Positions 14,705-54,200 of a stretch of 64,000 nt of DNA are shown piece by piece. The stretch covers positions 1,854,365 through 1,918,364 of the forward strand of contig OZ252246.1 of assembly GCA_965249625.1 (NCBI GenBank), read 5' to 3'. The notes beneath the pieces were generated by a model. That model saw only the letters and a program-made list of their open reading frames with translations, was not told the DNA's origin and made no database searches. The translations under genes and the position numbers were made by a program. This stretch comes from Nitrospinales bacterium (GTDB lineage: Bacteria; Nitrospinota; Nitrospinia; Nitrospinales; VA-1). The number at the start of each line of letters is the position of its first letter. The first letter of the stretch is position 1.

Positions 14705-15172
14705 TCAATGATCTTCCAACTGATACTCGTCCTTGCCTTTCCATCCAGCGGAGCGGAACGTGCTTTCAAAATCCACCTTGCCCCGGATCACCGCTTGCAG
14801 AGTGGCTCTTGAGCAATCAGGAACGATCCTTGTGTATACGTTTCCATTACGTTTAAGCAACCCGAAGACGATGGTTTTGCCACTGGCTCCGCGACCTCTT
14901 TTTCCTTGAACCCGCCGGGCCCCGAAAAAGCTTTCATCGACTTCGATATCTCCAGAAAATGGAGATTCTATTTCACATTCTTCAGCAATTCTTTCGCGGA
15001 CAAGAAGCTGATATTTATTAACCGGGTTGCGATTTAAACCTGTCAATTTGGCAATCCTGGTCGCTTCAATATCCAGTGAAAAATACTTTAAAATTTCCCT
15101 GAATTTCCTCCTCGAAATCCGGGCACGTTTCAAAGCCGCGTAACTCTTTGTCATAACTGAAGTTTGAACCAC
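14705..15172 (-). pseudogene. IS1595-family (ISXO2-like) transposase, N-terminal fragment
   Basis: The HTH-like region (RRKFREILKYFSLDIEATRIAKLTGLNRNPVNKY) is followed by the start of the DDE domain (IEVDESFFGARRVQGKRGRGASGKTIVFGLLKRNGNVYTRIV). The frame ends after about 155 codons, and the rest of the catalytic domain is missing. Confidence 0.65.
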
Positions 15173-15794: not shown

Positions 15795-16388
15795 TCAGCC
15801 TTTATTCTCATAATAATCCAGGCCAGAGTGGTCGATCACTTTTTCTCCCATAATGATCCGCAAGGTATTGCGAAGTTTATCATCCTGATCGAACAGGGAG
15901 TTCACCGGTTTGAGGTAGGGTCTGCATTGGGGCGATTTAAAATAAAACGAAAGCCATTCCTGTATGCCTCTCATTCCCGCCCGTTGCGCCAGGTCGAGGA
16001 ATAACACCAGGTCCAGAACGACAGGTGCCGCAAGAATAGAATCGCGACAAGGAAAATTGATTTTTAATTGCATTTTTTGACCCAACCAACCTTGGATATC
16101 TATATCATCCCAGCCTTCTTTAGCATCTCCTCTTGGAGGATAATATTCGATGCGGATTTTATGGTAGTAGTCTCCATAGAGATCGGGATAAAGATCATCC
16201 TGAAGGATGCGCGACATTTGCGTGACCGACCCAATAGGTTTGCTATGTCCAGAATTCACCAGAAAGACCCCAGCGATAAGTGTCGAACGCACCGCTCCCA
16301 TTCCTGGCAACAAAACTCCCAATTTCCCTTTTGGCGGCGCAATTTTTTTCGCCATGCCGCTATATTTGTCGCTGGTCTCAGTCATCAA
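15795..16388 (-). pseudogene. myo-inositol-1-phosphate synthase remnant (intact frame, central part apparently deleted)
   Basis: The N-terminal Rossmann start GKLGVLLPGMGAVRSTLIAGV...KPIGSVTQM joins directly to the C-terminal MIPS region YHKIRIEYYPPRGD...CRDSILAAPVVLDLVLFLDLAQRAGMRGIQEWLSFYFKSP. The ORF is 197 aa, against roughly 360-400 aa for archaeal/bacterial MIPS as I recall them. The junction is near 16195..16210. Confidence 0.6.
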
Positions 16389-16663
16389 GTCCTACTCCTC
16401 TCAAGTTAGATCATGACTCTAGTGGTTGTAAATTGGTTCAACTGGAAGGCCCTGGCACAAGAAGGAGGTACAACCTTGCGAGTGGCAAACCTGTTGATTC
16501 TGTGCAAGAATGGCACCCTGCAGCCTGTATTGGATAGTTTTTTTCCAATCTAGAGATCTGCAACAAACTGACTTAAAAACCGACCCTCATAAACAAATGG
16601 CCTCTATCGGGTGAGGCTAGCTTTTGTTTAATATTACAATACGTTTCACAGGCTAACAGCCGC

Positions 16664-17878
16664 ATGAACCCCAACACCAACCCTCCAAATTCCGAAGCTT
16701 CACTGCAAAGTACATGTGGCATCCTTTACTTACCGCCTCCTCCGGAACCTTGGGAAACTGCGGAGTGGTATGCATCATCCATTGCCGGCGTACCTTTCCT
16801 TTTAAGAAACATTCTGACTCTTCAGCGTTCTGGACTGCATGACATAACCATCCTCATGGATGCCGGGGAAACAGAAAAATTAACCCTCGCCATTGAGAAA
16901 GATTCTCGCATCACCGCAAAGGTTCATTGGATGACAAAACCCGACCAGCTAAAAGAAACGCTGCAAAACCACCGGGTTCTTTTTTTTAACGGATCTGCTC
17001 TTCACGACAAAAAAGAGGTTCGTTCCCTTCTAGAAACTGAAGGAACAAAAACTCCTGAAACTTTACCCATCAGCAACGAGCAGCTCGAATCATTGATAGA
17101 AAAAATCCAAACGAATGGCGAAAAAGAATCAGGAGAACTCCTAGAAAACACACGCTCCTTTACATATGTACCTGGGATGGAAAAAACCCATGTTCGGGAA
17201 CAAAAAGATTTTAATACTCTAAACAAACGCTTACTTAAAGGTTCCGGCCAAAACCATGACAGCACCATAACCCGACTTCTATCCCGTCCAGTTTCCAGAA
17301 AACTGACCCGCTTTTTTTTGAATACGCCGATTCACCCCAACCAGATCACGCTGTTTGGTTTTGCCATGGGCTTGGGGTCGGCTCTGTGTTTTGCGCAAGG
17401 AACATATCAGACAAACATATTTGGCGGCCTCTTGTTATTATTTTCAACATGGGTGGATGGAGCAGACGGAGAAATCGCCAGATTGAAATTTATGGAAACG
17501 GAATTAGGAGGCAAGCTGGACATTGTTTGCGACAACATTGTCCACTTCTTCGCATTCGGAGCTATAGGCTGGGGGTTGAGCGAGGCAACAGGCGACAAAA
17601 CCTACATATATGTAGGAGGATTGGCCGCATTCGCCAGCTTAACTTCCTTTATGCTTCTGGGCGCATCCCTTCTCAAGAAAAGCTCCAACGCCGCCACTCC
17701 GTTACCGGAATCGCAACCCTCTCTGGCCGATAAACTCGCCAACCGGGACTTCATTCATTTTCTTATGTTGATGGCTTTGATCGATTTGGTGCAAGTGTTT
17801 ATATTCATCGCCGCTGTAGGTGCCACCGTTTTCACCACCTATCTGATTTACCTACGCCTCTCTCAGCGATCTCATTAA
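16664..17878 (+). CDS. CDP-alcohol phosphatidyltransferase with N-terminal degenerate nucleotidyltransferase-like domain
   Basis: The C-terminal TM domain carries the family motif DGADGEIARLKFMETELGGKLDIVCD (D-x2-DG-x2-AR-x8-G-x3-D-x3-D). The roughly 200-aa N-terminal domain sits where IPCT sits in bifunctional IPCT/DIPPS enzymes. It lacks a G-x-G-x-R-L loop and reads ILYLPPPPEPW instead. Confidence 0.75.
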   Translation: MNPNTNPPNSEASLQSTCGILYLPPPPEPWETAEWYASSIAGVPFLLRNILTLQRSGLHDITILMDAGETEKLTLAIEKDSRITAKVHWMTKPDQLKETLQNHRVLFFNGSALHDKKEVRSLLETEGTKTPETLPISNEQLESLIEKIQTNGEKESGELLENTRSFTYVPGMEKTHVREQKDFNTLNKRLLKGSGQNHDSTITRLLSRPVSRKLTRFFLNTPIHPNQITLFGFAMGLGSALCFAQGTYQTNIFGGLLLLFSTWVDGADGEIARLKFMETELGGKLDIVCDNIVHFFAFGAIGWGLSEATGDKTYIYVGGLAAFASLTSFMLLGASLLKKSSNAATPLPESQPSLADKLANRDFIHFLMLMALIDLVQVFIFIAAVGATVFTTYLIYLRLSQRSH

Positions 17879-17882
17879 AAAA

Positions 17883-18605
17883 TTATTTTGAAGAATTGGC
17901 AATCAAATAACTTTCGGCTTGTTTGTACCTTTCAGGGTCATCAATATCGATCCAAAACATGCCATCGACCGGCATGGTGCGTACCCGACCTTCCCGGGCC
18001 ATGATACGAACCCCTCCGGACAGTGAGTCATCCCCAGAGTCCCGCAAAGATTGCTCCAAGGCCGAAAACAAGGCCGGATTGCAAAGAAAGATTCCCGTAT
18101 CAAAACAGTTATATGCCTCAATTCCTTTACCTATATTTTGAATCAGGCCCTTCTCTGCCATCACCCGAGTCACATCATCCAGATCAACCATGGGGTTTTT
18201 CAGATCCTGATCCACCGCCAAAACGATTTCATCATCAGCCAAGGGATAGTCGATCATTTTGCGAGCAATACCAGGATCAAAAAGATGGTCTCCCATTAAC
18301 AGGAAAAAAGGCTCCTTTAAAAATTTCTTTGCTTTAAGCACCGACAAGCCGTTGGCCTTTTCCCAATCGTCATTTTCAATCACCGTGACAGGCACATCAA
18401 TTTTGCCAGCTAAATCTTCAAGAAAAGCGCGAACCTGATCCCCTCGATACCCCACCACCGCATAAAATCCATCCACTCCCGCCTCTAAAGCAGAACAAAT
18501 GACCCGTTCAACAAGAGGAACATCCAAAAGGGAAGCCAGCGGCTTACTGTCGGACAGAGATTTTAAGCGACTTCCTTTTCCAGCGATAATGATTAAGCAT
18601 TTCAT
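17883..18605 (-). CDS. nucleotidyltransferase, CTP:inositol-1-phosphate cytidylyltransferase-like
   Basis: MKCLIIIAGKGSRL, then NGLSVLKAK...FFLLMGDHLFD, CFDTGIFLC and FWIDIDDPE. In my recollection of the A. fulgidus enzyme, these align closely with the IPCT half of archaeal IPCT/DIPPS. Confidence 0.75.
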   Translation of the reverse strand: MKCLIIIAGKGSRLKSLSDSKPLASLLDVPLVERVICSALEAGVDGFYAVVGYRGDQVRAFLEDLAGKIDVPVTVIENDDWEKANGLSVLKAKKFLKEPFFLLMGDHLFDPGIARKMIDYPLADDEIVLAVDQDLKNPMVDLDDVTRVMAEKGLIQNIGKGIEAYNCFDTGIFLCNPALFSALEQSLRDSGDDSLSGGVRIMAREGRVRTMPVDGMFWIDIDDPERYKQAESYLIANSSK

Positions 18606-18657
18606 AATGTTAATGACTCATTTCAGCGAAAAAATTTCTGTCAAAACTAAAAGCATC

Positions 18658-19665
18658 CTAATTCGAATCTTCCTGAGCGACTTTAGCCAGATCAAAAGGC
18701 TTTTGTGAATATTCCAGGCCTACGGAAAATCCCCAAACCAACCAGACAATTTCCCGAACCCGCCTGATGAGAGCCGCAGCAACGCCCAATGCAGGTTGAC
18801 CCGCTATCGCTTCCGTTGCGATCATAAAAATAGCTTCCGTACTGCCCAGCCCGGAAGGAATAAAAAATGTGCCTGCCCGAACCAGTTCAATGAGTGTTTC
18901 CAGAATTATGGCCTCAACAATTGTAATAGGATGGCCTAAAAAATAAAAAATGACGAATATTTCCAAGGCACCCAAATACCAGTTAACAAGATTCAAAAAT
19001 AGCGCGGAGATGAAGCGTCCCTTGTCACAGGTATAAAATTGCACCAGCCGCTCATCCATATCATGGATTTGGTGGAGAAATTTTTCCAGCCGTTGGCCAA
19101 ACTTTCTCTGGCTAAGCCAAGTACCGGTTAATGAAGTGATCTTGTAGCGCTGAATGGCGTAGAACAAAAATATTCCAAGAGTGATTGCACTCAAGCTAAG
19201 AATCGCGAAGAGACGAAAGCTCTCAGGAAGGTCTGAACCCATGATTATAAGGAAAACACCCGTTGCCGCAAATAAAACCAGGGAGATCATATGGGTGGAT
19301 TCGGCAAGGATCATTGATGCCGTCCCTTCCCGGTAGCGGATTCCATAATGATGCTTGAGAATATAACCTTTAATAGGCACTCCTCCCCAAGAGCTGAAAG
19401 GCATCACTTTAGAAAAAGCCGAACCCACCATGCGGACCTTCCAAAGGTCATACAACCATCGTTTGGTGAATTGTGTGCCGGGCAAAGTAAACTGCCATGC
19501 AAAGGTGTCCACCATAAAGGCTATTTTATAAACGACCAACACAACTACAATGCCCCAGCCCATTTTTTTTAACTGGGACCAAACCGAAGCAAGGTCTGTA
19601 TAGCTCAGAACAAAAAAAAGCAGGCCAATACCTATCAACAAATACAAAATTTTTAAAGGTTTCAT
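18658..19665 (-). CDS. flippase-like polytopic membrane protein (lysyl-PG synthase TM-region / UPF0104-like)
   Basis: I moved the start to ATG 19665 (MKPLKILYLLIGIGLLFF), 5 nt after the upstream stop, to remove the 127-nt overlap in the track. It has multiple hydrophobic spans. The family call is from general resemblance only. Confidence 0.6.
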   Translation of the reverse strand: MKPLKILYLLIGIGLLFFVLSYTDLASVWSQLKKMGWGIVVVLVVYKIAFMVDTFAWQFTLPGTQFTKRWLYDLWKVRMVGSAFSKVMPFSSWGGVPIKGYILKHHYGIRYREGTASMILAESTHMISLVLFAATGVFLIIMGSDLPESFRLFAILSLSAITLGIFLFYAIQRYKITSLTGTWLSQRKFGQRLEKFLHQIHDMDERLVQFYTCDKGRFISALFLNLVNWYLGALEIFVIFYFLGHPITIVEAIILETLIELVRAGTFFIPSGLGSTEAIFMIATEAIAGQPALGVAAALIRRVREIVWLVWGFSVGLEYSQKPFDLAKVAQEDSN

Positions 19666-19670
19666 AGCTG

Positions 19671-20300
19671 TCACACATGCCAGCGACGCGCACTGCAGGT
19701 GAACTGCAGGCACCAATAGGCCTGGGCACCAATCGCGGTCGGAGGGAGAATGTACCAAAGTACGCCCCCCATACTCATAAATAATACGATGAAACAAAAA
19801 TCGCTGCGGACAACACGTGCGTTGAGCACAAATCGATCCATCCTGGTGTCGTCATCCCTCGTCATCGCATCTTCGGGAGGACGTTGGCTGGAATGAAGCT
19901 TGGTCTTATTTTGATAAAGCTCCAGGCCGTAATTAATGGTGCCGCCTAACCCCGCAGCGATACCAGTCCACAACCACCATTTCTGCCCTGTCACTGAGGT
20001 TGCCCCCCACCCCAGGCAAACAAAGAAAAAACCATGGACAACCCAATCGACGAAGGTGTCGAATCTCATTCCAAAAATACTGCGCATATCCTTGAGGCGG
20101 GCAATCTCACCATCGCAGTTGTCGAGCACATAGCAACCAAACAACAAAAATGCGCCAATAAGTGTCGAGGTATAGGTTCCATTTAGACAGGTCACTCCAG
20201 CGGCCAAGCCAAACAGTAAAGACAAGGAGGTGATCTGGTTCGGCGTGATCGGTGTGCGTACCAATAGCAGGGTAAGCCGAAAGGAAAAATGCCGGATCAA
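19671..20300 (-). CDS. CDP-alcohol phosphatidyltransferase family protein
   Basis: The motif DNCDGEIARLKDMRSIFGMRFDTFVD is present. The 209-aa protein is polytopic. Confidence 0.85.
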   Translation of the reverse strand: MIRHFSFRLTLLLVRTPITPNQITSLSLLFGLAAGVTCLNGTYTSTLIGAFLLFGCYVLDNCDGEIARLKDMRSIFGMRFDTFVDWVVHGFFFVCLGWGATSVTGQKWWLWTGIAAGLGGTINYGLELYQNKTKLHSSQRPPEDAMTRDDDTRMDRFVLNARVVRSDFCFIVLFMSMGGVLWYILPPTAIGAQAYWCLQFTCSARRWHV

Positions 20301-27954: not shown

Positions 27955-28000
27955 GCCCACTAGGCGTGGAGACCCTTGCATAAGTTGATAAAACAGAAAA

Positions 28001-28500
28001 GCGAGATTCTTCACTACGTTCAGAATGACAATGCGACCTCGTTCAGCATGACAATACTGGGCCATTTTGTCATCCTCGAGGAACCGAAGGCGACGAAGGA
28101 TCTCGCCTTGCACTAACTTGGGGATTACCCCTTCGGGGCACGAAAGCTTGAGTGAAACATCACGTCTTCACGGAGCCTGTGCTAAGCGAAGCCGAAGCAT
28201 TCAGAATAACAATGCGACCTCGTTCAGCATGACAATACTGGGCCATTTTGTCATCCTTGAGGAGCCGAAGGCGACGAAGGATCTCGCCTTGCACTAACTT
28301 GGGGATTACCCCTTCGGGGCACGAAAGCTTGAGTGAAACATCACGTCTTCACGGAGCCTGTGCTGAGCGAAGCCGAAGCATTCAGAATGACAATGCGATC
28401 TCGTTCAGCATGACAATACTGGGCCATTTTGTCATTCTGAGGAACAAGGTGACGAAGACGTGATATTTTTCCTTAAACTTCATGCCCCTAAAGGGGTAAA
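28001..28500. repeat. mosaic repeat array A
   Basis: The array contains gtcat(t/c)ct(g/c)a-type modules in both orientations, two M1 modules at 28128..28163 and 28309..28344 (+), and one M1 at 28460..28497 (-). It lies between the convergent genes ending at 27954 and 28545. Confidence 0.85.
28019..28448. repeat. 181-bp tandem direct repeat, about 2.4 copies
   Basis: Units start near 28019, 28200 and 28381. The track ORFs 28067..28297 and 28248..28463 are offset by exactly 181 nt and give near-identical peptides (SSRNRRRRRISPCTNLGITPSGHESLSETSRLHGACA...). Confidence 0.85.
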
Positions 28501-28544
28501 ACGCTCCGCGAGCCACTAGCAGATCATACTTTGCCACCGGTGGA

Positions 28545-28928
28545 TCACCGGTTTTTATAAAGATCTCCAACACGGAAACCGCCGCGGTCTTCCTGATCAA
28601 TGCTGCTCTGGCGGGTGTCTTCCACATCGAGTTTGCCAAGAGCTTCCGACACTTCGACCTGATAGTTTTTGACCTTTCGATAAAGGGGGTGGGTAATATC
28701 GAGTTTCAGGTTGGTGAGCGCGGCAGTGAACTCGCCTTTCCCATCCGGACTCAGCTTGCAGACCAGTTCACCTGAATTGTCATCGCAGTAAACATCGATC
28801 ACTTCAAGCGGGGTTTTATTTTTGACCGGGAATCCCATTTCACGGAGCAAGGTCAACACAGCTCCGCGCCCATAAACACGAAGTGGCAGGTGCGGTAAAA
28901 GTTCATTTAACAAAGACTGTGCGCTCAA
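28545..28928 (-). CDS. hypothetical protein (127 aa)
   Basis: The ORF is non-repetitive and has a plausible composition. I recognise no motif. The start codon is uncertain (TTG in the track). Confidence 0.45.
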   Translation of the reverse strand: MSAQSLLNELLPHLPLRVYGRGAVLTLLREMGFPVKNKTPLEVIDVYCDDNSGELVCKLSPDGKGEFTAALTNLKLDITHPLYRKVKNYQVEVSEALGKLDVEDTRQSSIDQEDRGGFRVGDLYKNR

Positions 28929-29845
28929 AATCTATTCCTTTCCAAAATGAGGACCAACTATTGAATTCGACCAGTATATACGCCCACTAGGCGTGGAGCC
29001 AATGAGTAATTACCTTCTCCCAAGGGCAAAAAGTATGGGTGACTTGACGGGTTCCTGCCAATTGCCCCTGCGGCGAACAGGGGAAACATAAATGTTTAAA
29101 GGTCTTTCCCTAATTATCCGAAAATAATAATAGGCAAGTCTGCTAATAATGAGGGCACTTATCGTTTCACGTTGTTTTCAGCCTGATCCGAACTTAGATT
29201 TATTACAGTGAGTATGAGGCCAGTCTCGATGCGTCAAAATTTTGTAATAACTTGACAAACATCAATAAATTCATTAAGTAGGGAGAGAAATTATGAGGGA
29301 AATGTGTGCCTGTGAATAAAATTTTCCCGGCGGTCAATGCGGTCAATCTGGCTTTTGTCCCCACCATCGCTCTCCTTGTTACCTTGTCGGTCAAAACCTG
29401 GACCCACCCCCTTATCCATCCATGGTGGGTGGTTCCTCGCTGGTGGGATTGATGCGTACAGACACCACCGACACCACTGCAAGCATTCCTATGCTGAAAG
29501 ATCTCCCCCACAAGTAGGAAAGCTGTTTGATTCCGAAACCACCACCCCTAAAAAACGGAACTGATGATATTTATCACCCCTCACGTTATCTCGAACTCTG
29601 ATGATTCTGAGTTTGTCACCCGCGAATTCAAAAAACGTCTGCCCAACCTGAAAAACCTCGACCCCAGAAGAAGCTAGCCTCCAACCCAGGCAAAAACCCC
29701 ATAAAGTGCTTGAAATCAGGGCCAATCTCAAGCATAGTGGGTGTTCTTTTATTCTATAATTCCCTTTCGTGCACATTTGTTTCCTGGCATACACAGGGGC
29801 CATTCCAAAGGAAGCGGATTAGAGTGCCAGATTCCCAGGGTTGAA

Positions 29846-30772
29846 ATGATTAAATCCAAATTTGTGAATAGTTTAGAGTTGATCGGTGACACCCCTTTGG
29901 TTAGACTGAACAGCGTTATCCCTTCAAATGGTGCCAATATTTTCGCTAAGCTGGAATTCTTCAATCCAGGGGGCAGTGTCAAGGATCGTATCGCACTGGC
30001 TATGGTGAAAGATGCAGAAAAAAAGGGCCTGCTGAAACCCGGTTCCACGATCATTGAACCCACAAGTGGAAATACAGGGATCGGCCTCGCTCTGGTGGGT
30101 GCCATCAAGGGCTACAATGTCATACTGGTCATGTCTGAGAACATGAGCTCCGAACGAAGGATGATTCTGGAAAGTTTTGGCGCAAAAACTGAATTGAGCC
30201 GCGCCGAATTCGGGATGGAAGGCACCATCCAAAGGGCAGAAGAAATGCTGGCTGAAAATCCGGGTTATTTCATGCCCCAGCAGTTCAACAACCCCGCCAA
30301 CCCGGAAGTGCATCGGCAAACAACCGGGCCCGAAATCGTTGCCGCCATGAATGGTGAATCGGTTGACGGTTTTGTGGCCGGCATTGGAACCGGGGGAACT
30401 ATCACCGGAGTTGGGGAAGTCTTAAAACAGCATTATGAGCAGGTTAAAGTGGTGGGTGTCGAGCCGGCAACCTCGGCGGTGTTATCAGGAGAACCACCCG
30501 GTCCCCACAAAATCCAGGGAATTGGCGCAGGGTTTAAACCCAATGTCCTGAACTTTGATCTGCTGGATCGTATTTTACCCGTTTCCGATGAAGACGCCTT
30601 TCTGTTTGCCAAGAGGCTCGGGAAAGAAGAAGGTCTTCTCGCTGGCATTTCTTCCGGAGCCGCATGTTTTGCCGCCAATGAAGTGGCCAAAGAGTTAGGC
30701 CCCGACAAAAATGTGGTGGTGGTTTTACCAGATACGGGCGAACGCTATTTCAGTTTTAATCAATACTTCTAA
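29846..30772 (+). CDS. cysK: cysteine synthase A (O-acetylserine sulfhydrylase)
   Basis: I moved the start to ATG 29846 (MIKSKFVNSLELIGDTPLVRLN). The PLP-lysine motif is NPGGSVKDRIAL, followed by TSGNTGIGLA and GIGTGGTITG. Confidence 0.9.
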   Translation: MIKSKFVNSLELIGDTPLVRLNSVIPSNGANIFAKLEFFNPGGSVKDRIALAMVKDAEKKGLLKPGSTIIEPTSGNTGIGLALVGAIKGYNVILVMSENMSSERRMILESFGAKTELSRAEFGMEGTIQRAEEMLAENPGYFMPQQFNNPANPEVHRQTTGPEIVAAMNGESVDGFVAGIGTGGTITGVGEVLKQHYEQVKVVGVEPATSAVLSGEPPGPHKIQGIGAGFKPNVLNFDLLDRILPVSDEDAFLFAKRLGKEEGLLAGISSGAACFAANEVAKELGPDKNVVVVLPDTGERYFSFNQYF

Positions 30773-30821
30773 AATAGACAGGATTTTGTTTTCCTGTAAA
30801 AAAAACCAAGGGAATGTTGGA

Positions 30822-32060
30822 ATGGGTTATGTTAAAGGATTAATCTGTAAAGAATGCAAAAAAGAATACCCCAAGGACCCGATTCACGTTTGTGAATTTT
30901 GTTTTGGGCCCTTGGAAATCAATTACGATTACGAATCCATCAAAAAGGTCGTGACCAAAAAGTCTATTGAGTCCGGCCCGCCCTCCATGTGGCGCTATGA
31001 GGCCCTTTTGCCTCTGGATGAGCCCCCAAAAGTAGGTCATCACACCGGTTTCACCCCTTTAATCAGGGCAAAAAACCTGGGCAAGGCACTGGGACTGAAA
31101 CATCTTTACCTGAAAAACGACTCCGTCAATCATCCCACTTTTTCTTTCAAGGACCGGGTCGTTTCAGTGGCCGTTTCCAAGGCCATAGAGTTTGGGTTCG
31201 ACACCATCTCCTGCGCCTCAACGGGTAACCTGGCAAACTCGGTGGCCGCCCATGCGGCAGAGGCCGGCCTGAAAAGTTGCATCTTCATTCCTGATGGATT
31301 GGAAGCGGGAAAAATTCTCGGGACTTTGATTTACGGAACGCAGCTGATTGCCGTCAAAGGCAGTTATGATGACGTGAACCGGCTTTGCAGTGAAATTGGA
31401 GCCAACCATGACTGGGCCTTCGTGAATATTAACATCCGGCCTTATTATGGCGACGGGTCTAAATCTTACGGTTATGAAATTGCCGAGCAGCTGGGCTGGA
31501 AAACACCGGACAATGTTGTGGTTCCCGTGGCAGGCAGTTCGCTGATCACAAAAATATGGAAAGCTTTTCATGAGTTTGAAATGCTGGGGCTGGTCGATAA
31601 GGTACAAACCAAAATTTTTGCGGCCCAGGCCACTGGCTGTTCCCCCGTCACCACAGCCATAAAAAATGGCACTGAAAACATCATACCGGTCAAGCCGAAT
31701 ACCATTGCCAAGTCCATCGCCATTGGAAATCCGGCCGATGGATACTACGGGATCAAAACCGCAAACACCAGCGGTGGCTACGGAGAAGACATCTCTGACG
31801 AAGAGGTGGTCACTGCTATGAGACTGCTGGGCGAGACCGAAGGCATATTCACGGAAACTGCAGGAGGCGTTACTGTAGGCGTCACACAAAAACTGGTCCA
31901 GCAAGGCCGGATCAAACCGGATGAAGTGACGGTCATTTGTATTACCGGCAACGGATTAAAAACCCAGGAAGCCTTGGCAGGTTGTTTTCCAGTGCCTACG
32001 GTGATCGAACCTAAAATAGATAGTTTTGAAGAAATTTTTGCCAACGGTTTAACAGTTTAA
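30822..32060 (+). CDS. threonine synthase family PLP enzyme with N-terminal zinc ribbon (ThrC or ThrC-like)
   Basis: I moved the start to ATG 30822 (MGYVKGLICKECKKEYPKDPIHVCEFCFGPLE). The PLP-lysine motif is HPTFSFKDRVVS, followed by CASTGNLANSVAAHAA. Whether it makes threonine or acts with the adjacent sulfur carrier cannot be decided from sequence. Confidence 0.85.
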   Translation: MGYVKGLICKECKKEYPKDPIHVCEFCFGPLEINYDYESIKKVVTKKSIESGPPSMWRYEALLPLDEPPKVGHHTGFTPLIRAKNLGKALGLKHLYLKNDSVNHPTFSFKDRVVSVAVSKAIEFGFDTISCASTGNLANSVAAHAAEAGLKSCIFIPDGLEAGKILGTLIYGTQLIAVKGSYDDVNRLCSEIGANHDWAFVNINIRPYYGDGSKSYGYEIAEQLGWKTPDNVVVPVAGSSLITKIWKAFHEFEMLGLVDKVQTKIFAAQATGCSPVTTAIKNGTENIIPVKPNTIAKSIAIGNPADGYYGIKTANTSGGYGEDISDEEVVTAMRLLGETEGIFTETAGGVTVGVTQKLVQQGRIKPDEVTVICITGNGLKTQEALAGCFPVPTVIEPKIDSFEEIFANGLTV

Positions 32061-32072
32061 AAGGAGTAAAGC

Positions 32073-32354
32073 ATGGCAGTAAAAGTAAGAGTACCCACCC
32101 CGTTAATGAAGTTGACCAACAACAAGAGCGAGGTGACGGCAGAAGGTGCCACCATCAGCGAAATTCTCAACAATCTGGAGAGCCAGTTTGCTGGAATTAA
32201 AGAGCGCATCTGCGAAGAAAGCGGTGCTCCCCGGCGTTTCATTAATATCTATTTGAACGAAGAAGATATCCGGTTTCTTGAGGGCGAAAGCACCGCTGTT
32301 AAAGATGGCGATGAAATCTCCATCATACCGGCAATAGCGGGCGGCACTAAATGA
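32073..32354 (+). CDS. MoaD/ThiS-family sulfur-carrier protein, C-terminus ...AIAGG-TK
   Basis: It is a 93-aa beta-grasp-like protein ending DGDEISIIPAIAGGTK. AAGGAG lies upstream of the ATG. Its stop overlaps the next gene's start (ATGA at 32351..32354). Confidence 0.8.
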   Translation: MAVKVRVPTPLMKLTNNKSEVTAEGATISEILNNLESQFAGIKERICEESGAPRRFINIYLNEEDIRFLEGESTAVKDGDEISIIPAIAGGTK

Positions 32355-33157
32355 TCGATTTTACCGATGAGCAGATAGAGCGCTACAGCCGCCACATCAT
32401 CCTCCCTGAAGTGGGAGGTGAGGGACAAAGCCTCCTTTTAGAATCAAAAGTTCTTTTGGTGGGTGCAGGTGGGCTGGGCTCTCCTGCCGCGTTTTATCTT
32501 GCCGCCGCTGGTATCGGCAACATGGGAATCATCGACTTTGATACCGTCGACCTCAGTAATCTGCAGAGGCAGATCATCCATAATACCGAGCGTATCGGCA
32601 TGCTCAAAACCGAGTCCGCAAAAAAAACCATTTCAGCACTCAATCCTGATGTCAATGTCACAGTTTTTAATGAGAGACTGAATTCGGAAAACATCATGCG
32701 CCTGTTTGAAGGCTATGATTATATTCTTGATGGCACCGACAATTTTGCCACGCGTTATCTCATCAATGATGCCTGTGTGATGACGGGAAAAGCCAATATC
32801 CATGGCAGTATATTCCGTTTTGAAGGACAGGTAACCGTTTTCAAGCCTGACGAAGGCCCCTGCTACCGTTGCCTCTATCCGGAACCGCCCCCACCGGGTC
32901 TGGTTCCCAATTGTCAGGAAGGCGGTGTTTTGGGTGTGCTGGCAGGAGTGATCGGAAACCTGCAAGTGGTCGAGACCCTGAAACTAATTCTAGGGAAAGG
33001 AGAAACCCTGGTCGGTTCTCTGCTTATTTATGACGCACTGAAAACAGAATTCAGGAAACTGAAATTAAAGAAAGATCCGAAGTGCCCTATTTGTAGCGAC
33101 CAACCCGCGATCACCGAATTGATTGACTATGAAGAATTTTGTGGTTTGCCGCGCTGA
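32351..33157 (+). CDS. ThiF/MoeB/HesA-family E1-like adenylyltransferase (no rhodanese domain)
   Basis: RYSRHIILPEVG, the nucleotide loop VGAGGLGSPAAFYLAAAGIG, DLSNLQRQ, and the zinc pairs CYRC and CPIC. At 268 aa it has no C-terminal extension. Confidence 0.85.
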   Translation: MIDFTDEQIERYSRHIILPEVGGEGQSLLLESKVLLVGAGGLGSPAAFYLAAAGIGNMGIIDFDTVDLSNLQRQIIHNTERIGMLKTESAKKTISALNPDVNVTVFNERLNSENIMRLFEGYDYILDGTDNFATRYLINDACVMTGKANIHGSIFRFEGQVTVFKPDEGPCYRCLYPEPPPPGLVPNCQEGGVLGVLAGVIGNLQVVETLKLILGKGETLVGSLLIYDALKTEFRKLKLKKDPKCPICSDQPAITELIDYEEFCGLPR

Positions 33158-33238
33158 TAAAGAAATATAAAAAATACCGGTAATTTTTTGCATCGTACCC
33201 GGTTTAAAAGATATCTAATATCTGAAATATCAAAATCG

Positions 33239-34240
33239 ATGAAATTCCCCATTCCCTTTGAGGTTCAGGCACCAACTTGCCCTGTCATCACCAACCAATC
33301 GGTGTTGAAGGCGATCGGCAACACCCCTCTGATCCGCATTCATAACTTGGGAAAAGAGTTCAAGGATGTGGATATTTACGCCAAGGCCGAGTGGAAAAAC
33401 GCCGGCGGTTCAGTAAAATCCCGCCCTGCCCTGAGAATGATCGAAGATGGTGAAAAATCCGGCAAGCTCACCAAAGATAAAATCATCCTCGATTCCACAT
33501 CCGGCAACACCGGCATCTCCTATGCACTGATCGGCAAGGTAAAAGGCTATAAAGTCAAACTGGTCATGCCAGCGAATGTCTGCAAAGAACGCAAAGGACT
33601 CATGGCCGACTTTTACGGCGCTGAAATTGTGACCTCCAGCCCCTTTGAAGGCTCCGATGGTGCGATCATCATGGCCAAGAAAATCTATGACGAAAATCCG
33701 GATATTTACTTCATGCCGGACCAGTACAACAACGACTCCAACTGGAAAGCGCATCAGGAAACCACAACACAGGAAATTTGGAATCAGACCAATCACCGAG
33801 TCACCCATTTCCTGGCGGGTATCGGAACCGGGGGTACCATTATGGGAACCAGCCGCGGCCTGCGCCAACTGAACTCTGACATCAAATGCTACGCAGTGGA
33901 ACCGGCAGAGTCCCTGCACGGACTGGAAGGCCTCAAACATATGGAGACTTCCATCGTACCCGGAATTTATAAAGAAGAAGAACTGGATGGGAAACTCAGC
34001 ATCCCGACCGACGAAGCTTACGACATGGTTGAGGTGCTGGAAAAACAGGAAGGCATCCTGGTCGGGCATTCTTCTGCCGCCGCTATGGTGGGAGCCCTGA
34101 AACTCGCCTCACAGATTAAAAGAGGGGTGATTGTTACCGTGTTCCCCGACAGTTGTGAAAGATGTTACGTTAACTTTGGGCAATTCAAGCAGTATTACGA
34201 GACCCACTCCAGCACCAGGCGTGAGGCCAACGAGCAATAG
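33239..34240 (+). CDS. cysteine synthase B-like PLP enzyme (CysM-like)
   Basis: I moved the start to ATG 33239. Motifs are IGNTPLIRI, the PLP lysine in NAGGSVKSRPAL, TSGNTGISYA and GIGTGGTIMG. Confidence 0.85.
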   Translation: MKFPIPFEVQAPTCPVITNQSVLKAIGNTPLIRIHNLGKEFKDVDIYAKAEWKNAGGSVKSRPALRMIEDGEKSGKLTKDKIILDSTSGNTGISYALIGKVKGYKVKLVMPANVCKERKGLMADFYGAEIVTSSPFEGSDGAIIMAKKIYDENPDIYFMPDQYNNDSNWKAHQETTTQEIWNQTNHRVTHFLAGIGTGGTIMGTSRGLRQLNSDIKCYAVEPAESLHGLEGLKHMETSIVPGIYKEEELDGKLSIPTDEAYDMVEVLEKQEGILVGHSSAAAMVGALKLASQIKRGVIVTVFPDSCERCYVNFGQFKQYYETHSSTRREANEQ

Positions 34241-34328: not shown

Positions 34329-34656
34329 ATGCCACCTTTTGAAAAACATATTTTCATCTGTACCAACGAAAGAAAAGCCGATGATGCCAGAGGCTGTTGT
34401 CACGCACGCGGTTCCCAAGAGCTTCTAGATCACATGAAAAGCCGTGTCCACGAACTGGGGGCTGAAAGGGAAAGTGCGGGTTAACAAAGCCGGGTGTCTG
34501 GATGCCTGCGCCCAAGGGCCATCCATGGTGGTTTATCCCGATGATGTCTGGTATTCCCCGAAGACGAAAGAAGACATGGAAGAAATCCTCACCGAACATA
34601 TCCAGAACGACCGCCCCGTTGACCGGCTAACCCTTTCCTTTAAGGCAAAAAGCTAA
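34329..34656 (+). pseudogene. thioredoxin-like [2Fe-2S] ferredoxin, +1 frameshift in a G5 run
   Basis: MPPFEKHIFICTNERKADDARGCCHARGSQELLDHMKSRVHELG (frame of ORF 34131..) continues as LKGKVRVNKAGCLDACAQGPSMVVYPDDVWY (frame of ORF 34444..). The switch is at ctgggggctg near 34456..34465, and one G fewer would restore a single frame. Confidence 0.7.
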
Positions 34657-48236: not shown

Positions 48237-51200
48237 TTAAAACCGGATATCGCCTTTCAGCATGATGGCGTGGTCAGTAACATTGCTGTTACTCTCTCTG
48301 CGCTCACCGGTCAGGTTCAGGTCAAACAACGCATCAAGTTCCCATCTCATCCCCAGGCGGTAACTTCTGGAAGAGTCGCCGAGAGTCATCTCACTGTAGG
48401 GAGTCAGCAGTCCCCGTCCGTCGGGAGCGGTCAGTCCGTAACCCAGGCGGGCATCCAATCGCGCGCCGTAACCCTGGTCACCGCTGACCTCATCGCCCAG
48501 GCCCTGCTGCCATACTTTTTGCGTGCCACTGCCTGTATCGCCGTAACCGGGACTCAGGCTGAACGACAGTCCCCGTCCGTTGCTGCTCTGCTCCAGAAGA
48601 ATCAGGCCGGAAACACCCCATTCCTCATAGTTGTCCCGTCCTACCAGGGTGCGGGCCCTGCCTTCCAAGGTCAGGCCGGCGGTCGGATCGGTGTAGCGGA
48701 AACCGGCGCCCAGCTCGGCCCCGAAACCGGTCTCGCCGTCACCGCCGTCATACCGCACTCCAGCCTCCAGGCTCGGTTCCACATAAGCCCCGTCAGCCAG
48801 CGTATGCTTATACGCCCCTTCCAGGATCATGCGCAACAGGCTGGACTCCACTTCCAGTCCCGCTATATCATCACTGCCCTCCACTTCCATCTCAGTCAGC
48901 AAAGCTGAACTCTTGAGCTGGAACAGGACCGGGCCTGCCCGCGACAACTGGGCATTGCTACCCACAGCCACGTTCCACGCTTCAACATCGCTCGATGCCG
49001 GGTCCTGCTCATCAGTGATCTCCAGGTCACCCCAGCCGTAGCCGGCAGTGGCCCACAGGTCCAGCTGTCCGGCCAGCGCCTCCCAGCTCACATAAGGGTG
49101 GACGCTGGTGAGGTCCAGCTCGTAATCGCCGCTGCTATCGTCGCCGTCCTGATAGTCCAGATCGCCATGGCTCCAGGATACTGTCAGACCCGTCAGCAGG
49201 TCGTCACGCGGTCGGCCATCCAGTCCCAGATGGGCGCTGAACAGGCTGCCGTCCCAGTCGATTGTCCCGCCGGAACCTTCGAGACTGCGGTAGCCGCCCC
49301 CGCCCCACAAGGTCAGGGAGGACAGTATCCCGCTGTCCGGTCCGCCCGCATCACTCAACGGCAGTACGAAGTCGGAGTTACCCAGCACATCCTTAAGACT
49401 CAGCGTACCGTCAGCAATGGCCTGGCCGTGGGCAGATGCCGCCCCGGCCAATGTGGACTGCCCGGCAATAGTGACGGACCGGGCATTGCCGCCGTTCCCA
49501 GCCTGACTGATACGTTGCGTTATCGCGCTCACCGTCTGGTCCGCTATGGCACGCGCCATTTCCGGCAGGATCACGGCATTGAGGTCGGTAAACCCCTCGT
49601 CCGTCACATTGGTAACCCTCACCGTTACCGCAACTGCGTCGCTGGTCCCGCTCGCGTCATCGGTGGCGGTGACGGTGATTTCATAATCGTTGTCGGTGTT
49701 GGCATCGGTCGGCATCTCAAAGTCCGGCGGGGTGCTGAAGGTCAAGACGCCAGCGTTAGTGATGGAGAAGTCATCCGCATCGGCCCCGCCGAGGGCGTAA
49801 CTGGTAATGGTCCTGCTATCAGTCGTGGTCGCGCTGAAGGAGTGCACTTCTGCCGTATCATTCTCGGCAAATACTATCGGTGTTGTTGGTGGTGGAGTCA
49901 CAACCGGTTTGGTCGGGGTCGCGGCCTGCACGGCGGCGGTCGGGTTGCTGGTGACTGCTTTACCGCTACCCTCACCATCGGTGTAAGTGGCGATGACTCG
50001 AATGGTCCTGTCTTCATCGGTTGCCACCGGCGTGTAGGTTGCACCGGTGCCCGCGCCGCTGATGTCGGTGTAGGTACCGTCTCCGCCTGCACTTCGCCAT
50101 TGATAGGTGATGGTGCCAACTTCCACACCATCCGGCGAATCCGCGTCGGTTACCGTGCCGGCGGTCAATTCCACGCTAACCCGCGCGGTGCCGGTGATGT
50201 CGCTGATGGCACCCGTCTCATCCACATTGGTAACCGTCACCGTTACCGCCAGCGGTGCGCTTGCCAGGTTGCTTGGGACGCCATTGGTTTCCGTGGCGGT
50301 AATGGTGACCTCGTAGGTCTCGGTGTGTGCATCGTCTTCAAAGTCCGGCGGATTGTTGAAAGTCAATTCGCCCTTATTAGGAGCAGCGCTATTAGGAGCA
50401 ATCGAGAACAATGCCGCATCCGTGCCGCCAGTGATTGACCAGATGATGGCGTTGCCCTCGGCATCGGTCGCGGTGTAGGTCTCCACCGGGGTGTCGGCGT
50501 TCTCGGCATAATTCGGTGCTGCATTGCCACTGACTACCGGCGCGGTGTTAGCCGCTGCCGCCGTCGCCATGCCGTTCACGCTCGCCGCGCTCTCGGGGCC
50601 TGGGTTCGGGGTGGTGGCAGCATCCATCACGCTGTTCGCGGCAAGGATCAGGCTGAAGGTTGCCGCGGTCGGGGTGAAGTTGATGGTGTAGGCGGCACCG
50701 CTACCGCTCACGCTATTCACCGTGACAAAGGTGGAAGTGGAGAAAGCATCCACCACCAAACCGGTTACCGCCTCGTTGAAGGTGATGCCGTGATCCTGCG
50801 GCGTGCCAATCACACCTGCGGTAATGGTGCCGAGGGTCACCGTCGGCGCGGTGGTGTCAGGTACATCCGTTACTGTGTATGTTCTAGTTACCGAGGTAGC
50901 CGCATTGCCTGATGCATCTACAGAATCATAAGTGATTATGTAATCGTCTAGTGTGCCAACCTCAACAGTTCCCGTTGTAGTCACTGCAGAACCGTCATCA
51001 GTTGTGACTCCATCAAGTAAGTTAGGTGGTGCTGAACCAATTTGTAGTGTAACGGTAGAAGGAACAACTGTGATGACTGGCGCTGTGGTATCAAGCGTAA
51101 TGACTAATTCTGATGACGCACCAGATTCATTACCTGCTGCATCCGTAGCCGTTGCGGTGAAGGTGTTGGCGCCTTCAGATAGTGCAACTGCTGCAAATGA

Positions 51201-54200
51201 GAAATCCCCTGAGCCATCAGCAGTTGTTGTACCCGCTGAGGTTGTTCCATTGAATAGTGCTACAGTCGCTGCGGCCTCAGCCGTGCCCTCAATTGTGATT
51301 GGCGATGAACCAACAGTTGCCGGTGCTGTGGTAATTGCAGGAACTGCCGGTGCTGTGGTGTCCTCCACAGTAATTACAATTGATTGTTGGGCTGGTGTGT
51401 TACCTGCCGCATCATCCGGCGCATTATATAATACGGTGTAAACTCCTACAGCACTGGTGTCAGGTGTGTCGCCTGTAATTGCTACTGCTCCAGAGTAAGC
51501 CGGGTCATTATCAGTTACCGTAGCGCCAAGTTCAGTGTAAGTGTTGGTTGCAGTTAACTCTATTGTTTCACTAGATCCTGCTACTGCGATAACTGGTGGG
51601 GTAGTATCTGTAACGGTAACTGTTCTGGTTACTGTTTCCGCAGAATTTCCAGACGCATCATCCACATTAAAGGTTACAGTGTATGTATTAGCCACACTGG
51701 TATTAACCGTATCGCCACCAACAACTACACCACTTGCGATATCTCCATCAGCATCATCAGTGGCAGAATAGGTAAATGGCGTGTATTCCGCTCCAAGTTC
51801 AACAGAGAATGAATCTTCAACAACTGCGATTACTGGTAGGGTAACATCATCAGCCGTAGTAGTTGTAGTTACAGGCAGATCAGCAGAGTTGTCACTCGTC
51901 CCGGCAGCGTTAGTTGATGTGGCGTGATATGTATACGCTGTTCCGGCAGTCAATCCAGTATCAGTGTAGGATGTTTCAGTGGTAGTAGTTGTTATGGAAG
52001 CGCCATCTCTAAACAACTCGTATCCTGTGGCGCCATTCACTGCAGTCCATTGAATCACAATGCTGGTCGGAGTGACTGCTCCTTGTACAAGTACAGGTGC
52101 GGCAGGTGCTTCAATTGGTGTAGTCAAGGTAGTGGCAGCAACCTCGTTGGAATTAGCAGTTGTTCTGCTCCCCACTGTCGCGGTAATGACATACCTATAC
52201 TCGGTTGCAGCAGTCAAGCCAGTATTAGTGGCAGTCAATGCAGTGGTTGTTGGCACTGTTACATCAGCACCGCCCGCAACAATTCTGGTCAGGGTGTAAC
52301 TATCGGCATTATCCACTGCACCCCATGAGAGCGTTATGCTTGTATCAGTAATTGTTCCTGCGACAAGTACAGGTGGGGTAGTTACAACCAACACAGCGGA
52401 TGGGTTACTTTGCTCGGAAGCATCGTTAAGTGCTATGACGTGATAAGTGTAAGTTGTTCCAGGAGTCACGTCCGTATCAGTGTATGCTGGTAAATCACCA
52501 CCCAGAGTAGTGTGAAAAACCCTTGCTATGCAGCCGGTTTTATCAGACCTAACCAAGCAATAGGCCAAGGTGCCATCCACTGCAGTCCATGTAATCGTAA
52601 CACTTGTCGAAGTGACTGCTCCGAGAATGAGTGTGGGTGCGGCGGGTGCAGTTGGCGCAGGCAAGGTAGTTGCAGTAACCTCGTTGGAATTAGCACTTAT
52701 TCGGCTCCCAACTGTCGCGGTAATGACATACTTATACTCGGTTGCAGGTTCCAAGTTCTCATCAGTGGCAGTCAATGCAGTGGTGGTTACTGTTACATTA
52801 GCACCGCCTGCAACCATTCTGGTCAGGGTGTAACTATCGGCATTATCCACTGCAGTCCATTCAAGCACTACGCTTGATGCCGTAGTTGTTCCTGCAGAAA
52901 GTATCGGTGCGGCGGGTGGTTCAGTTGGCGCAGGTCCAGTCGTTATAGGTGCAGAATCTATAACTGCGTCAAGGCCAAGGAAAATACTAACCTCGCCAGT
53001 ATAATCATAGCCCACTGTTTCTGTGTGAATGTATGGGACGGCTGCATCATTAATGCTAAAGCCAGTGGTAGAACCAGGATCAAATTGAATTTCAAAATCA
53101 CCGGTGTGTGACGACGTGAAGGTTATAACTACTTTATCTCCGTCAGTCGCATGGGGTTCATCGTTGAGAGTGTACACGGCAGGTGAAGTTGGCGCAGCAT
53201 TAGTCCTTGCCTCAACCTCGTTAGAATCTGCACTTGTCCCAACAGAATTTGTTGCGGTAACGACATACTTGTACGGTGTCTCAGGAGTCAGGCCAGCATC
53301 AGTGGCAGTCAATACATTGCCTGTTGCCACTTCAATATCATTAATGCCATCAACAATTCGGGTCAGGGTATAACTGTCGGCATTATCCACTGCACCCCAT
53401 GAGAGCGTTATCGTTGTCGGAGTAACTTCTCCGAGAACAAGTGCGGGAGTAGCCGGTGCAGCGGTCGGCGTGGCGGTGGCTTCGTTTGACGCTTCGCCCC
53501 CGCCCGCCGAGTTCACCGCGCGCACTTGGAAGAAGTATGCGGTGTCGTTGGTCAAGCCGGTCACGGTGTATTCGGTCGCGGTGGCACTGTTTGGAATTGC
53601 TGTCCACGGATTGGTATCGTCATAAGTTCCCGCTGTTGTGCTTTGGCGAACCTCATAGCCGGTGATTGCCGCGCCGCCGGTTGCGCTCGGTGCCGTCCAG
53701 GTCAGCGTGACCGTGGTATCGCCCGCATCCGCCGTCAAACCGGTCGGCGCGGCGGGTGCTGTTGTTGTGTCAGCGGCGGTCGTTCCCGTGTTGGTCACAT
53801 AAGCGCCTGCCACTTCGGCGGTGGCGCCGCTGCCGGCTTTGGCGCGCACGCGCACAGTGTAGCCGGTGTCTGCCGTCAAGCCGGTGATGGCGGCGGTCTC
53901 GGCAGTCACCGCGACATTCGCAGCCGTGTAGGTGCTGTCGTCCGCGCCAGTCACTTTATATTCCACATCAAAGCCGGTGGTCGGGTCTTTGTCGGTGTCG
54001 GATCCTTGCGTCCAGGACACCGCGAAGGCGCTCTGGGCGGGCGAGCCCGCGTTGACGGTGACGCTGGCAATGGCGCGCGGTTGCGCCACATTGGGGATGA
54101 TGATGTCCACCATGTCGGTAACGGGCGAGTTGCCGCCGCCAGACAGGGTCACGCTCAACTCAAAAGTCAAGGTGGTGTCGGCGGTTACATAAGGCGCGGT

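Follow-up and report, generated by a model that had tools for sequence, protein, structure and literature searches.

A conserved Nitrospinota gene cluster links a MetM-like homolog of threonine synthase to a CysO/MetO-type sulfur carrier: a probable route of protein-thiocarboxylate-dependent homocysteine synthesis

A compact set of genes in a Nitrospinales bacterium places a pyridoxal 5'-phosphate (PLP) enzyme related to threonine synthase (ThrC) directly upstream of a small sulfur carrier protein, with further enzymes of the cysteine synthase family on either side. It lies in a 64,000-nucleotide stretch of contig OZ252246.1 (assembly GCA_965249625.1, positions 1,854,365 to 1,918,364 of the forward strand), which we call the window. 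This arrangement raises the question of what a threonine synthase homolog does beside a carrier. An earlier note, made from the sequence of the window alone, had proposed that this ThrC-like enzyme is the partner of the carrier, in the manner of the MetM/MetO pair. The MetM/MetO pathway, which the note had named as an unverified report, proved to be real: as described by Hasebe et al. (2024; Appl Environ Microbiol 90:e01247-24), cited in PMC12172450 and GapMind 2026, it forms homocysteine from O-phosphohomoserine and the thiocarboxylate of MetO, with Mec and MoeZ as helpers. The proposal found support in the position of the ThrC-like protein outside the canonical clade, its motifs, a homolog in Nonomuraea gerenzanensis under S-adenosylmethionine (SAM) riboswitch control, and the adjacency of the two genes across phyla. 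We hence consider it probable that the operon is dedicated to protein-thiocarboxylate-dependent synthesis of sulfur amino acids, with the ThrC-like protein as the predicted carrier-fed homocysteine synthase.

Organization of the cluster

The listing of open reading frames (ORFs) and the domain scans recovered five genes on the + strand at 29846-34240. All five had been described in the earlier note as lying on one strand in this interval, while a sixth co-oriented gene, coding for a ferredoxin, had been missed. The features of the region are the following:

29846-30772, + strand: cysK, O-acetylserine sulfhydrylase A; 308 aa; TIGR01139 435.7 bits against a cutoff of 351
30822-32060, + strand: ThrC-like PLP enzyme of a MetM-like clade; 412 aa; PALP domain; N-terminal four-cysteine ribbon; TIGR00260 287.5 bits
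32073-32354, + strand: CysO/MetO-type sulfur carrier of the ThiS/MoaD fold; 93 aa; Pfam ThiS 65.3 bits; C-terminus ...SIIPAIAGG-TK
32351-33157, + strand: E1 adenylyltransferase of the MoeB/ThiF type; 268 aa; Pfam ThiF 287.5 bits over residues 12-246
33239-34240, + strand: CysM-like PLP enzyme of the O-acetylserine sulfhydrylase (OASS) family; 333 aa; TIGR01138 314 bits, under the cutoff of 394
34329-34656, + strand: thioredoxin-like [2Fe-2S] ferredoxin gene, sixth of the cluster; matches to Pfam 2Fe-2S_thioredx and NF041612
34779-34796, + strand: terminator-like hairpin from a consensus scan, about 120 nt past the ferredoxin stop; a possible operon end, on weak evidence

The successive gaps from cysK to the CysM-like gene are 49, 12, -4 and 81 nt, and 88 nt separate the latter from the ferredoxin gene. 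The negative gap reflects the overlap of the carrier stop with the E1 start (ATGA). This overlap, the AIAGGTK end of the carrier with two residues past the di-glycine, and an E1 of 268 aa with the ThiF domain alone and no rhodanese domain are all as the note had read them. The cysK product shows about 52% identity to E. coli CysK, groups with CysK in the tree of the OASS family, and opens the conserved cluster in the same place in the Nitrospinota loci.

Relative to the loci L001-L003, the ferredoxin gene of the window has one G too many in a run of five (34457-34461), which breaks it into two frames; without this G it codes for an intact protein of 108 aa. The frameshift either stems from a sequencing error in the homopolymer or marks a recent pseudogene. 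The promoter and terminator consensus scan of the region returned no more sites than expected from shuffled sequence. Searches with Rfam gave no match in the window at the gathering threshold, nor any at E <= 5 in the stretch 28000-30000, upstream of cysK.

The ThrC-like enzyme

The affinities of the ThrC-like protein were studied in an alignment of 116 sequences, comprising five ThrCs of solved structure, annotated thrC genes, the members from the loci described below, and representatives of 50%-identity clusters drawn from an exhaustive HMMER search. In neighbor-joining trees, a canonical ThrC clade that includes the five proteins from the PDB, along with others, received 94% bootstrap support. 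The protein of the window and its homolog from Nonomuraea gerenzanensis were kept apart from all canonical ThrCs in 100 of 100 bootstrap replicates. The placement relative to canonical ThrC, which the note had named as a check on its proposal, thus puts the protein outside the canonical clade.

The same division is seen in the motifs. Canonical ThrCs display PTGSFKDRGM, CASTGNTSA and N-SVNPYRIEGQKT, and the five solved proteins and other canonical sequences have STGNT and NPxR[IL]EGQKT in common. The protein of the window instead has PTFSFKDRVV, CASTGNLAN and NINIRPYYGDGSKS. The STGNL and RPYY-type motifs are found in it, in all 24 carrier-linked homologs and in the Nonomuraea protein; these homologs and the Nonomuraea protein follow the pattern PT[FHL]SFKDRVV, C[AS]STGNLAN and N[IV]N[IL]RPYYxxGSK. 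At the changed positions, Leu replaces the Thr of STGNT and Tyr replaces the Arg of NPxR, and a new Arg stands three residues before the latter; we take these positions to line the phosphate pocket of Thermus thermophilus ThrC. STGNL with RPYY as against STGNT with NPxR offers a simple signature that parts MetM-like enzymes from true ThrC.

The Nonomuraea protein served as a proxy for MetM. Its gene is preceded by a SAM-I riboswitch (68.7 bits) and followed by a gene for a 91-aa carrier that ends in GG, as published for metM-metO, and it shares 52.6% identity over the full length with the protein of the window. Elsewhere the same genome has a canonical thrC, whose product is 64.5% identical to that of Mycobacterium tuberculosis. 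A SAM riboswitch likewise stands upstream of metM in Streptomyces albulus (Hasebe et al. 2024, cited in PMC12172450; GapMind 2026), and GapMind 2026 describes MetM as "often misannotated" as threonine synthase.

Searches of the PDB matched only canonical ThrCs and found no solved MetM structure. The N-terminal Zn-ribbon was considered as a marker of MetM and ruled out, as many ThrC-family proteins with canonical motifs have one too. By clade and motifs, we do not consider the ThrC-like protein a canonical threonine synthase, and its annotation as such in Nitrospina is probably wrong.

Gene neighborhoods across phyla

The neighborhood, the conservation of which bears directly on the earlier proposal, proved to be kept well beyond the window. 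Nitrospina sp. LS_NOB has a ThrC-like protein with 99% identity to that of the window, the source of which is assigned to Nitrospina, and 61 further loci, nearly all of them labelled Nitrospinota, have versions with 80-98% identity. The order of the genes is shared by 62 Nitrospinota loci, among them that of the cultured Nitrospina gracilis. The full series, from cysK through the genes for the ThrC-like enzyme, carrier, E1 and CysM-like enzyme to the ferredoxin, is present in 42 of the 62, and most of the others end at a contig edge. A ferredoxin gene follows the CysM-like gene in 50 of the 62 and in N. gracilis. The E1 gene is missing from the cluster in three loci (L054, L055 and L059) and in the type strain N. 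gracilis 3/211, where a 290-nt gap ahead of the CysM-like gene holds no E1; the E1 thus need not be encoded with the carrier and can act in trans.

Outside Nitrospinota, 18 loci code for ThrC-like homologs with 60-63% identity, from Binatia, Syntrophobacteraceae, "Deltaproteobacteria", Thermodesulfovibrionales, Manganitrophaceae, Poribacteria and other lineages. Their usual order is E1, ThrC-like enzyme, carrier and CysM-like enzyme. Despite the other gene orders, the ThrC-like and carrier genes remain adjacent in 16 of the 18. Four loci have the ThrC-like and carrier genes without a CysM-like gene: two of these carry CysK instead (L064 and L068), and in the other two (L066 and L078) the ThrC-like gene, the carrier gene and a gene for a stand-alone NIL-domain protein form a unit with no cysteine-synthase-family gene nearby. 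An order shared by 62 Nitrospinota loci, and a linkage that outside this phylum persists after rearrangement, make a chance arrangement very improbable. Since this linkage outlives rearrangement and occurs without the CysM-like gene, it points to the ThrC-like enzyme itself as the partner of the carrier.

Links to methionine

Nine distant loci hold an operon for the E1, the ThrC-like enzyme and the carrier, in some cases followed by the CysM-like enzyme and the NIL protein, with a SAM-I riboswitch of 80-96 bits immediately ahead of its first gene. These riboswitch-led operons come from metagenome-assembled genomes of Binatia, Syntrophobacteraceae and "Deltaproteobacteria". They include the cysteine-synthase-like gene, so that the whole operon stands behind the riboswitch. 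In 12 loci outside Nitrospinota, a stand-alone NIL protein with a length of about 80 aa is encoded just after either the carrier or the CysM-like enzyme. The positions of these elements are:

SAM-I riboswitches: loci L065, L067, L069 (7039-7154), L070, L072, L073, L076, L077 and L079
NIL genes: L066, 2085-2321; L068, 9533-9772; L078, 9564-9815; L065, 9273-9530; L077, 10686-10943; and seven further loci

The NIL domain is tied to methionine biosynthesis and transport and is known from a NIL/ferredoxin protein required for homocysteine synthesis in methanogens and Desulfovibrio; it also occurs in the methionine importer MetN. The stand-alone version may be a methionine-sensing accessory. It is absent from the Nitrospinota loci, where the ferredoxin fills the position after the CysM-like gene.

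A further link comes from the Thermodesulfovibrio locus L066 (253-4719), which codes for a MetM-like enzyme, a carrier, a NIL protein, a canonical ThrC (TIGR00260, 324 bits) and HomK (TIGR02535, "proposed homoserine kinase", 537 bits and above the cutoff). As judged from these family assignments, the predicted maker of O-phosphohomoserine sits here with two different consumers, one MetM-like and one a canonical ThrC.

The carrier, its activation and its maturation

Among proteins of solved structure, the carrier is closest to CysO of Amycolatopsis orientalis (4n6e_B, E = 1.5e-22) and of M. tuberculosis (3dwg_C, E = 2.6e-21). It is 45-52% identical to actinobacterial MetO and CysO alike, with 44-51% in the comparison with CysO proteins, and an attempt to assign it to one of the two specifically was dropped, given that it is equidistant from both. 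Across 77 homologs the core SI[IV]PAIAGG is invariant, and the tail after the di-glycine is hypervariable, with 0-4 residues: seven carriers end in GG, ten in GGA, six in GGVGA and four in GGTR, with other endings in the rest. Every Nitrospinota carrier has residues after GG. A tail of such variability behaves as a propeptide that is removed.

In N. gracilis 3/211, the carrier (L086, 9427-9708) is called as a protein of 81 aa ending in GG-N, and the usual beginning MAVKVRVPTP... is not found in frame upstream. A sequencing frameshift or a shorter start is possible.

The E1 matches models of rhodanese-fused proteins (NF006444 and NF005902, for MoeZ and rhodanese-MoeB) over its E1 part only. The note had seen neither a JAMM/Mec-type protease nor a rhodanese near the cluster. 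Both observations held in a Pfam scan of the window ORFs of at least 100 aa, in which no JAB/JAMM and no rhodanese domain was found. For the protease, two phmmer queries, Mec of Tsukamurella and the Prok-JAB protein of L064, likewise gave no match in the six-frame translation of the window. L064 is the only related locus with a JAMM gene, in the order Prok-JAB (6344-6970), ThiS, cysK, ThrC-like enzyme, carrier and E1. A search for homologs of its JAB protein returned 257 matches, with none labelled Nitrospina among sparse names. The Mec gene of actinomycetes is linked to cysO-cysM and lies at a distance from metM-metO, which provides a precedent for a protease encoded in trans. The additional ThiS-like gene of L064, just upstream of cysK, codes for 70 aa.

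As for the sulfur, the genome paper of N. gracilis describes obligate autotrophy and a complete pathway of sulfate assimilation with a sulfite reductase that depends on ferredoxin; a thiosulfate sulfurtransferase is reported as well. That paper and its supplement make no mention of thrC, homoserine, MoeB or JAMM genes.

The CysM-like enzyme

The CysM-like protein was compared with E. coli CysK and CysM and with M. tuberculosis-type CysM, as represented by the versions from the syntenic clpS-...-mec-cysO-cysM loci of Tsukamurella and Nonomuraea. It scores under the cutoffs of both TIGR01138 and TIGR01136 and shows 36-38% identity to E. coli CysM, M. tuberculosis-type CysM and E. coli CysK alike (38% to Tsukamurella CysM and 37% to E. 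coli CysM). Searches of the PDB could not place it with M. tuberculosis CysM either, as it resembles CysM no more than it does generic cysteine synthases. The CysM-like proteins from the clusters of all phyla form a third clade of the OASS family. Its place in a separate clade means that it is not, by descent, a member of the Rv1336 family. The CysM-like enzyme of the note is thus a carrier-linked member of the OASS family and no ortholog of M. tuberculosis CysM.

The protein has a short loop of the CysM type with the invariant sequence LHG[LI]EGLKHM. It has Lys at the position where M. tuberculosis-type CysM (GLRN) and E. coli CysM (GIRR) have Arg; in the former, this Arg is presumably Arg220, which binds O-phosphoserine. 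The Lys is likewise basic, which is not diagnostic. From adjacency, we infer that the CysM-like enzyme uses the carrier. Its position behind the SAM riboswitch in nine loci led us to keep an alternative in which it supplies sulfur from cysteine to the carrier.

Proposed pathway and alternative explanations

In the pathway that we propose, the carrier would be made with a disposable tail of 1-4 residues (TK in the window), which would be trimmed to expose the di-glycine. The E1 would then adenylate the C-terminus, and addition of sulfur would convert it to the thiocarboxylate (carrier-COSH); the donor might be sulfide from ferredoxin-dependent sulfite reduction, to which the ferredoxin of the cluster might contribute, or a stand-alone sulfurtransferase encoded elsewhere. 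The ThrC-like protein would act as a γ-replacement enzyme of the MetM type, forming homocysteine from O-phosphohomoserine and carrier-COSH, and not as a housekeeping threonine synthase. The CysM-like enzyme would most likely use the same carrier-COSH for cysteine, and CysK would provide the ordinary sulfide route. That one carrier could serve both the ThrC-like and the CysM-like enzyme is compatible with the single CysO/MetO-type carrier predicted at each locus.

Several points weigh against carrier-dependent homocysteine synthesis in Nitrospinota, and some of them concern the ThrC-like enzyme. With its 287.5 bits it passes the cutoff of the thrC model TIGR00260, it is labelled threonine synthase in public records, and it retains the PLP lysine and most motifs of the ThrC family. 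Its membership of a MetM clade rests on the Nonomuraea homolog as a proxy for S. albulus MetM. Further, a MetM homolog from Microcystis is reported to be 51.6% identical to MetM and to show threonine synthase and deaminase activity in vitro. The ThrC-like enzyme could be bifunctional, or the sole threonine synthase of Nitrospina. Other points concern its surroundings: Rfam found no SAM riboswitch or other known RNA element in the window, in L002, in L020 or in N. gracilis; no JAMM hydrolase was found in the window or, out to about 8 kb, in any of the 62 Nitrospinota loci, whereas carrier maturation and product release both depend on such a hydrolase in the known cycles of CysO and HcyS; and the CysM-like enzyme, besides being no ortholog of Rv1336-type CysM, is labelled in IMG (JGI) as cysteine synthase B / S-sulfocysteine synthase, which is the E. 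coli type of CysM. If the ThrC-like protein were a genuine threonine synthase, perhaps the only one of Nitrospina, the carrier would serve the CysM-like enzyme alone, and the conserved adjacency of their genes would parallel that of cysO-cysM in M. tuberculosis. We regard this as quite unlikely. The riboswitch-controlled Nonomuraea protein passes the TIGR00260 cutoff as well, and this model therefore does not separate MetM-like enzymes from ThrC. The protein stands outside the canonical clade in every bootstrap replicate, with changes in what we take to be the phosphate pocket, and some loci hold it and the carrier with no CysM-like gene. SAM riboswitches, and not threonine, control the Nonomuraea gene and operons homologous to that of the window, and a canonical ThrC coexists with the MetM-like version both in the L066 operon and in the Nonomuraea genome.

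Two other explanations accept the link to methionine and differ on the CysM-like enzyme. The operon might serve methionine only, with the CysM-like enzyme as a sulfur mobilizer that passes sulfur from cysteine, made by CysK, through carrier-COSH to homocysteine, loading it on the adenylated carrier by, for example, the thiocarboxylate half-reaction of CysM run in reverse or cysteine desulfhydrase activity. The control of the whole operon, CysM-like gene included, by a SAM riboswitch in nine loci suits such a methionine role better than a general cysteine supply. The E1 without a rhodanese, the separate clade with its invariant and unusual active-site loop, and the frequent presence of CysK in clusters that lack the CysM-like gene (L064 and L068) also fit. 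Even so, we hold it to be unlikely: sulfur mobilization with a carrier has no precedent in the OASS family, the sole characterized carrier-adjacent member of which, M. tuberculosis CysM, runs in the synthetic direction; and the units of L066 and L078, with no cysteine-synthase-family gene nearby, evidently work without one. S-box control of cysteine-pathway genes, too, has precedent in Bacillus. A bolder form, to which we give a similarly small chance, is a self-contained and JAMM-independent relay, in which the CysM-like clade would load the carrier with cysteine sulfur, the MetM-like enzyme would release homocysteine without a protease, and the ferredoxin or NIL protein would be a redox or methionine-sensing accessory. 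Loading in this relay, improbable to the same degree, might proceed by the reverse half-reaction of CysM via an S-acyl-cysteine intermediate or with channelled sulfide from a desulfhydrase. Least probable by far is an incidental presence of the carrier and E1 here, whether as a pair of the MoaD/MoeB or ThiS/ThiF kind that would serve molybdopterin, thiamine or the thiolation of tRNA, or as a protein-conjugation system resembling SAMP/UbaA. Nitrospina does need molybdopterin for its nitrite oxidoreductase, the E1 exceeds the cutoff of the MoeB-subfamily model NF004281 (315.8 bits against 266), the carrier barely reaches that of the moaD_arch model TIGR01687 (49.7 against 49.5 bits), and an E1 that is missing from some Nitrospinota clusters may be a shared, general one. 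Against it, the carrier is much nearer to CysO (E about 1e-22) than to solved proteins of the MoaD type (about 1e-10), the scores for SAMP1 (53 bits, cutoff 60) and UbaA (342 bits, cutoff 450) fall short, and the carrier gene adjoins the ThrC-like gene across phyla. Neither the window nor the N. gracilis locus contains moa, moe, thi or tRNA-thiolation genes, in keeping with the note, for which molybdopterin genes beside a carrier/E1 pair would have spoken for a different role.

Other features of the window and of the records searched

Between a gene for an AhbD-like radical SAM protein and orf127 lies a tandem repeat of 181 bp (28019-28457; 2.4 copies, 95% matches), which yields two near-identical spurious ORFs. 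The gene orf127 (28545-28928, - strand; 127 aa) is divergently oriented upstream of cysK and is kept in this place in 13 Nitrospinaceae loci, including that of N. gracilis. Its product belongs to no Pfam family and has the conserved core SGELVC...AALTNLKLDIxHPLY. It was considered as a hidden protease or sulfurtransferase and set aside, having no Pfam match and no conserved metal motif.

At the end of the window, an ORF of giant size, over 5,250 aa (48237-63998, - strand), runs past the boundary. It has Ig-like, cadherin-like, fn3 and PKD repeats and a GC content of 0.53-0.62, where the other parts of the window have about 0.47, and is probably a giant adhesin of distinct composition. Transposase remnants are found at 3023-3535, 8977-9978, 14705-15172 and 15795-16388; they comprise an N-terminal DEDD part of the IS110 type, a DUF772 and DDE_Tnp_1_6 transposase split over two ORFs, and an IS1595-like fragment. 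This IS1595-like fragment adjoins a myo-inositol-1-phosphate synthase truncated to its C-terminal part (197 aa). Along with this truncated enzyme, the region 15795-20300 codes for two CDP-alcohol phosphatidyltransferases, an NTP transferase and a membrane protein resembling LPG synthase, and the cluster may make an inositol-phosphate solute or lipid.

Two records of the plasmid collection are evidently chromosomes: NZ_LT559118.1 of Nonomuraea gerenzanensis (L081/L087; 11.85 Mb) and NZ_CP093325.1 of Bacillus sp. N5-665 (L082; 5.5 Mb). The former holds metM-metO with the SAM riboswitch, mec-cysO-cysM and the canonical thrC.

Significance

Nitrospina is the main nitrite oxidizer of the ocean and an obligate autotroph, and the synthesis of methionine and cysteine belongs to its basic metabolic model. 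The MetM/MetO route, reported from Streptomyces in 2024, appears to reach Nitrospinota, Binatia, Desulfobacterota-like lineages and Nitrospirota, often merged in one SAM-riboswitch operon with the E1, the new clade of the OASS family and the NIL protein. The cluster is best described as joining two known modules, MetM/MetO and a CysO/CysM-like one, around one carrier and is not categorically new; it would extend the published Streptomyces pathway as cited in the sources named above, and the misannotation of MetM is already recorded in GapMind. The JAMM-independent relay, if true, would amount to a new form of transsulfuration that is mediated by a carrier.

Comparison with known systems

The closest counterpart is MetM/MetO. 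In both systems, a ThrC homolog labelled as threonine synthase is coded directly upstream of a CysO-like carrier of the ThiS fold with a Gly-Gly end (with a gap of 12 nt in the window), an E1 is required, and the proposed chemistry joins O-phosphohomoserine to carrier-COSH. Relatives of the window gene are, like S. albulus metM, under the control of a SAM riboswitch. In contrast to MetM/MetO, the pair in the window shares one operon with cysK, the E1, a second enzyme of the cysteine synthase family and a ferredoxin. Its E1 lacks the rhodanese of MoeZ, the Nitrospinota loci tested have no SAM riboswitch, no Mec-type JAMM gene is nearby, and carriers of its type have a variable tail of 1-4 residues.

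The cysteine pathway of M. tuberculosis, which comprises CysO, CysM, Mec and MoeZ (EC 2.5.1.113; Burns 2005, Agren 2008, O'Leary 2008), resembles the cluster in that the carrier is a clear homolog of CysO, a cysteine-synthase-family gene lies close downstream, and activation is by an E1. It differs in that CysO ends at GG with no propeptide, whereas the window has no adjacent mec, an E1 without a rhodanese, a CysM-like enzyme of a separate clade with Lys for the loop Arg, and a MetM-like enzyme flanking the carrier.

In Wolinella succinogenes, HcyS, HcyF, HcyD and MetY constitute a homocysteine pathway (Krishnamoorthy and Begley 2011) that, like the one predicted for the window, makes homocysteine from a protein thiocarboxylate with removable residues after GG and a dedicated E1. 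However, the sulfhydrylase there is MetY, an enzyme of fold-type I that uses O-acetylhomoserine, and not a ThrC homolog using O-phosphohomoserine; no domain of the MetY type (Cys_Met_Meta_PP) was found in window ORFs of at least 100 aa. The protease HcyD is coded within the Wolinella cluster, unlike in that of the window, where none was seen.

Finally, the DUF39 protein (MA1821) and the NIL/ferredoxin protein (MA1822) of methanogens and Desulfovibrio recall the NIL proteins of the 12 loci outside Nitrospinota, the ferredoxin within Nitrospinota, and the link to homocysteine. In that route, the substrate is aspartate semialdehyde and the ferredoxin is of the 4Fe-4S type, whereas the loci studied here have no DUF39, their ferredoxin is thioredoxin-like with a [2Fe-2S] center, and the NIL protein and the ferredoxin are separate and mutually exclusive. 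The resemblance is only a lead.

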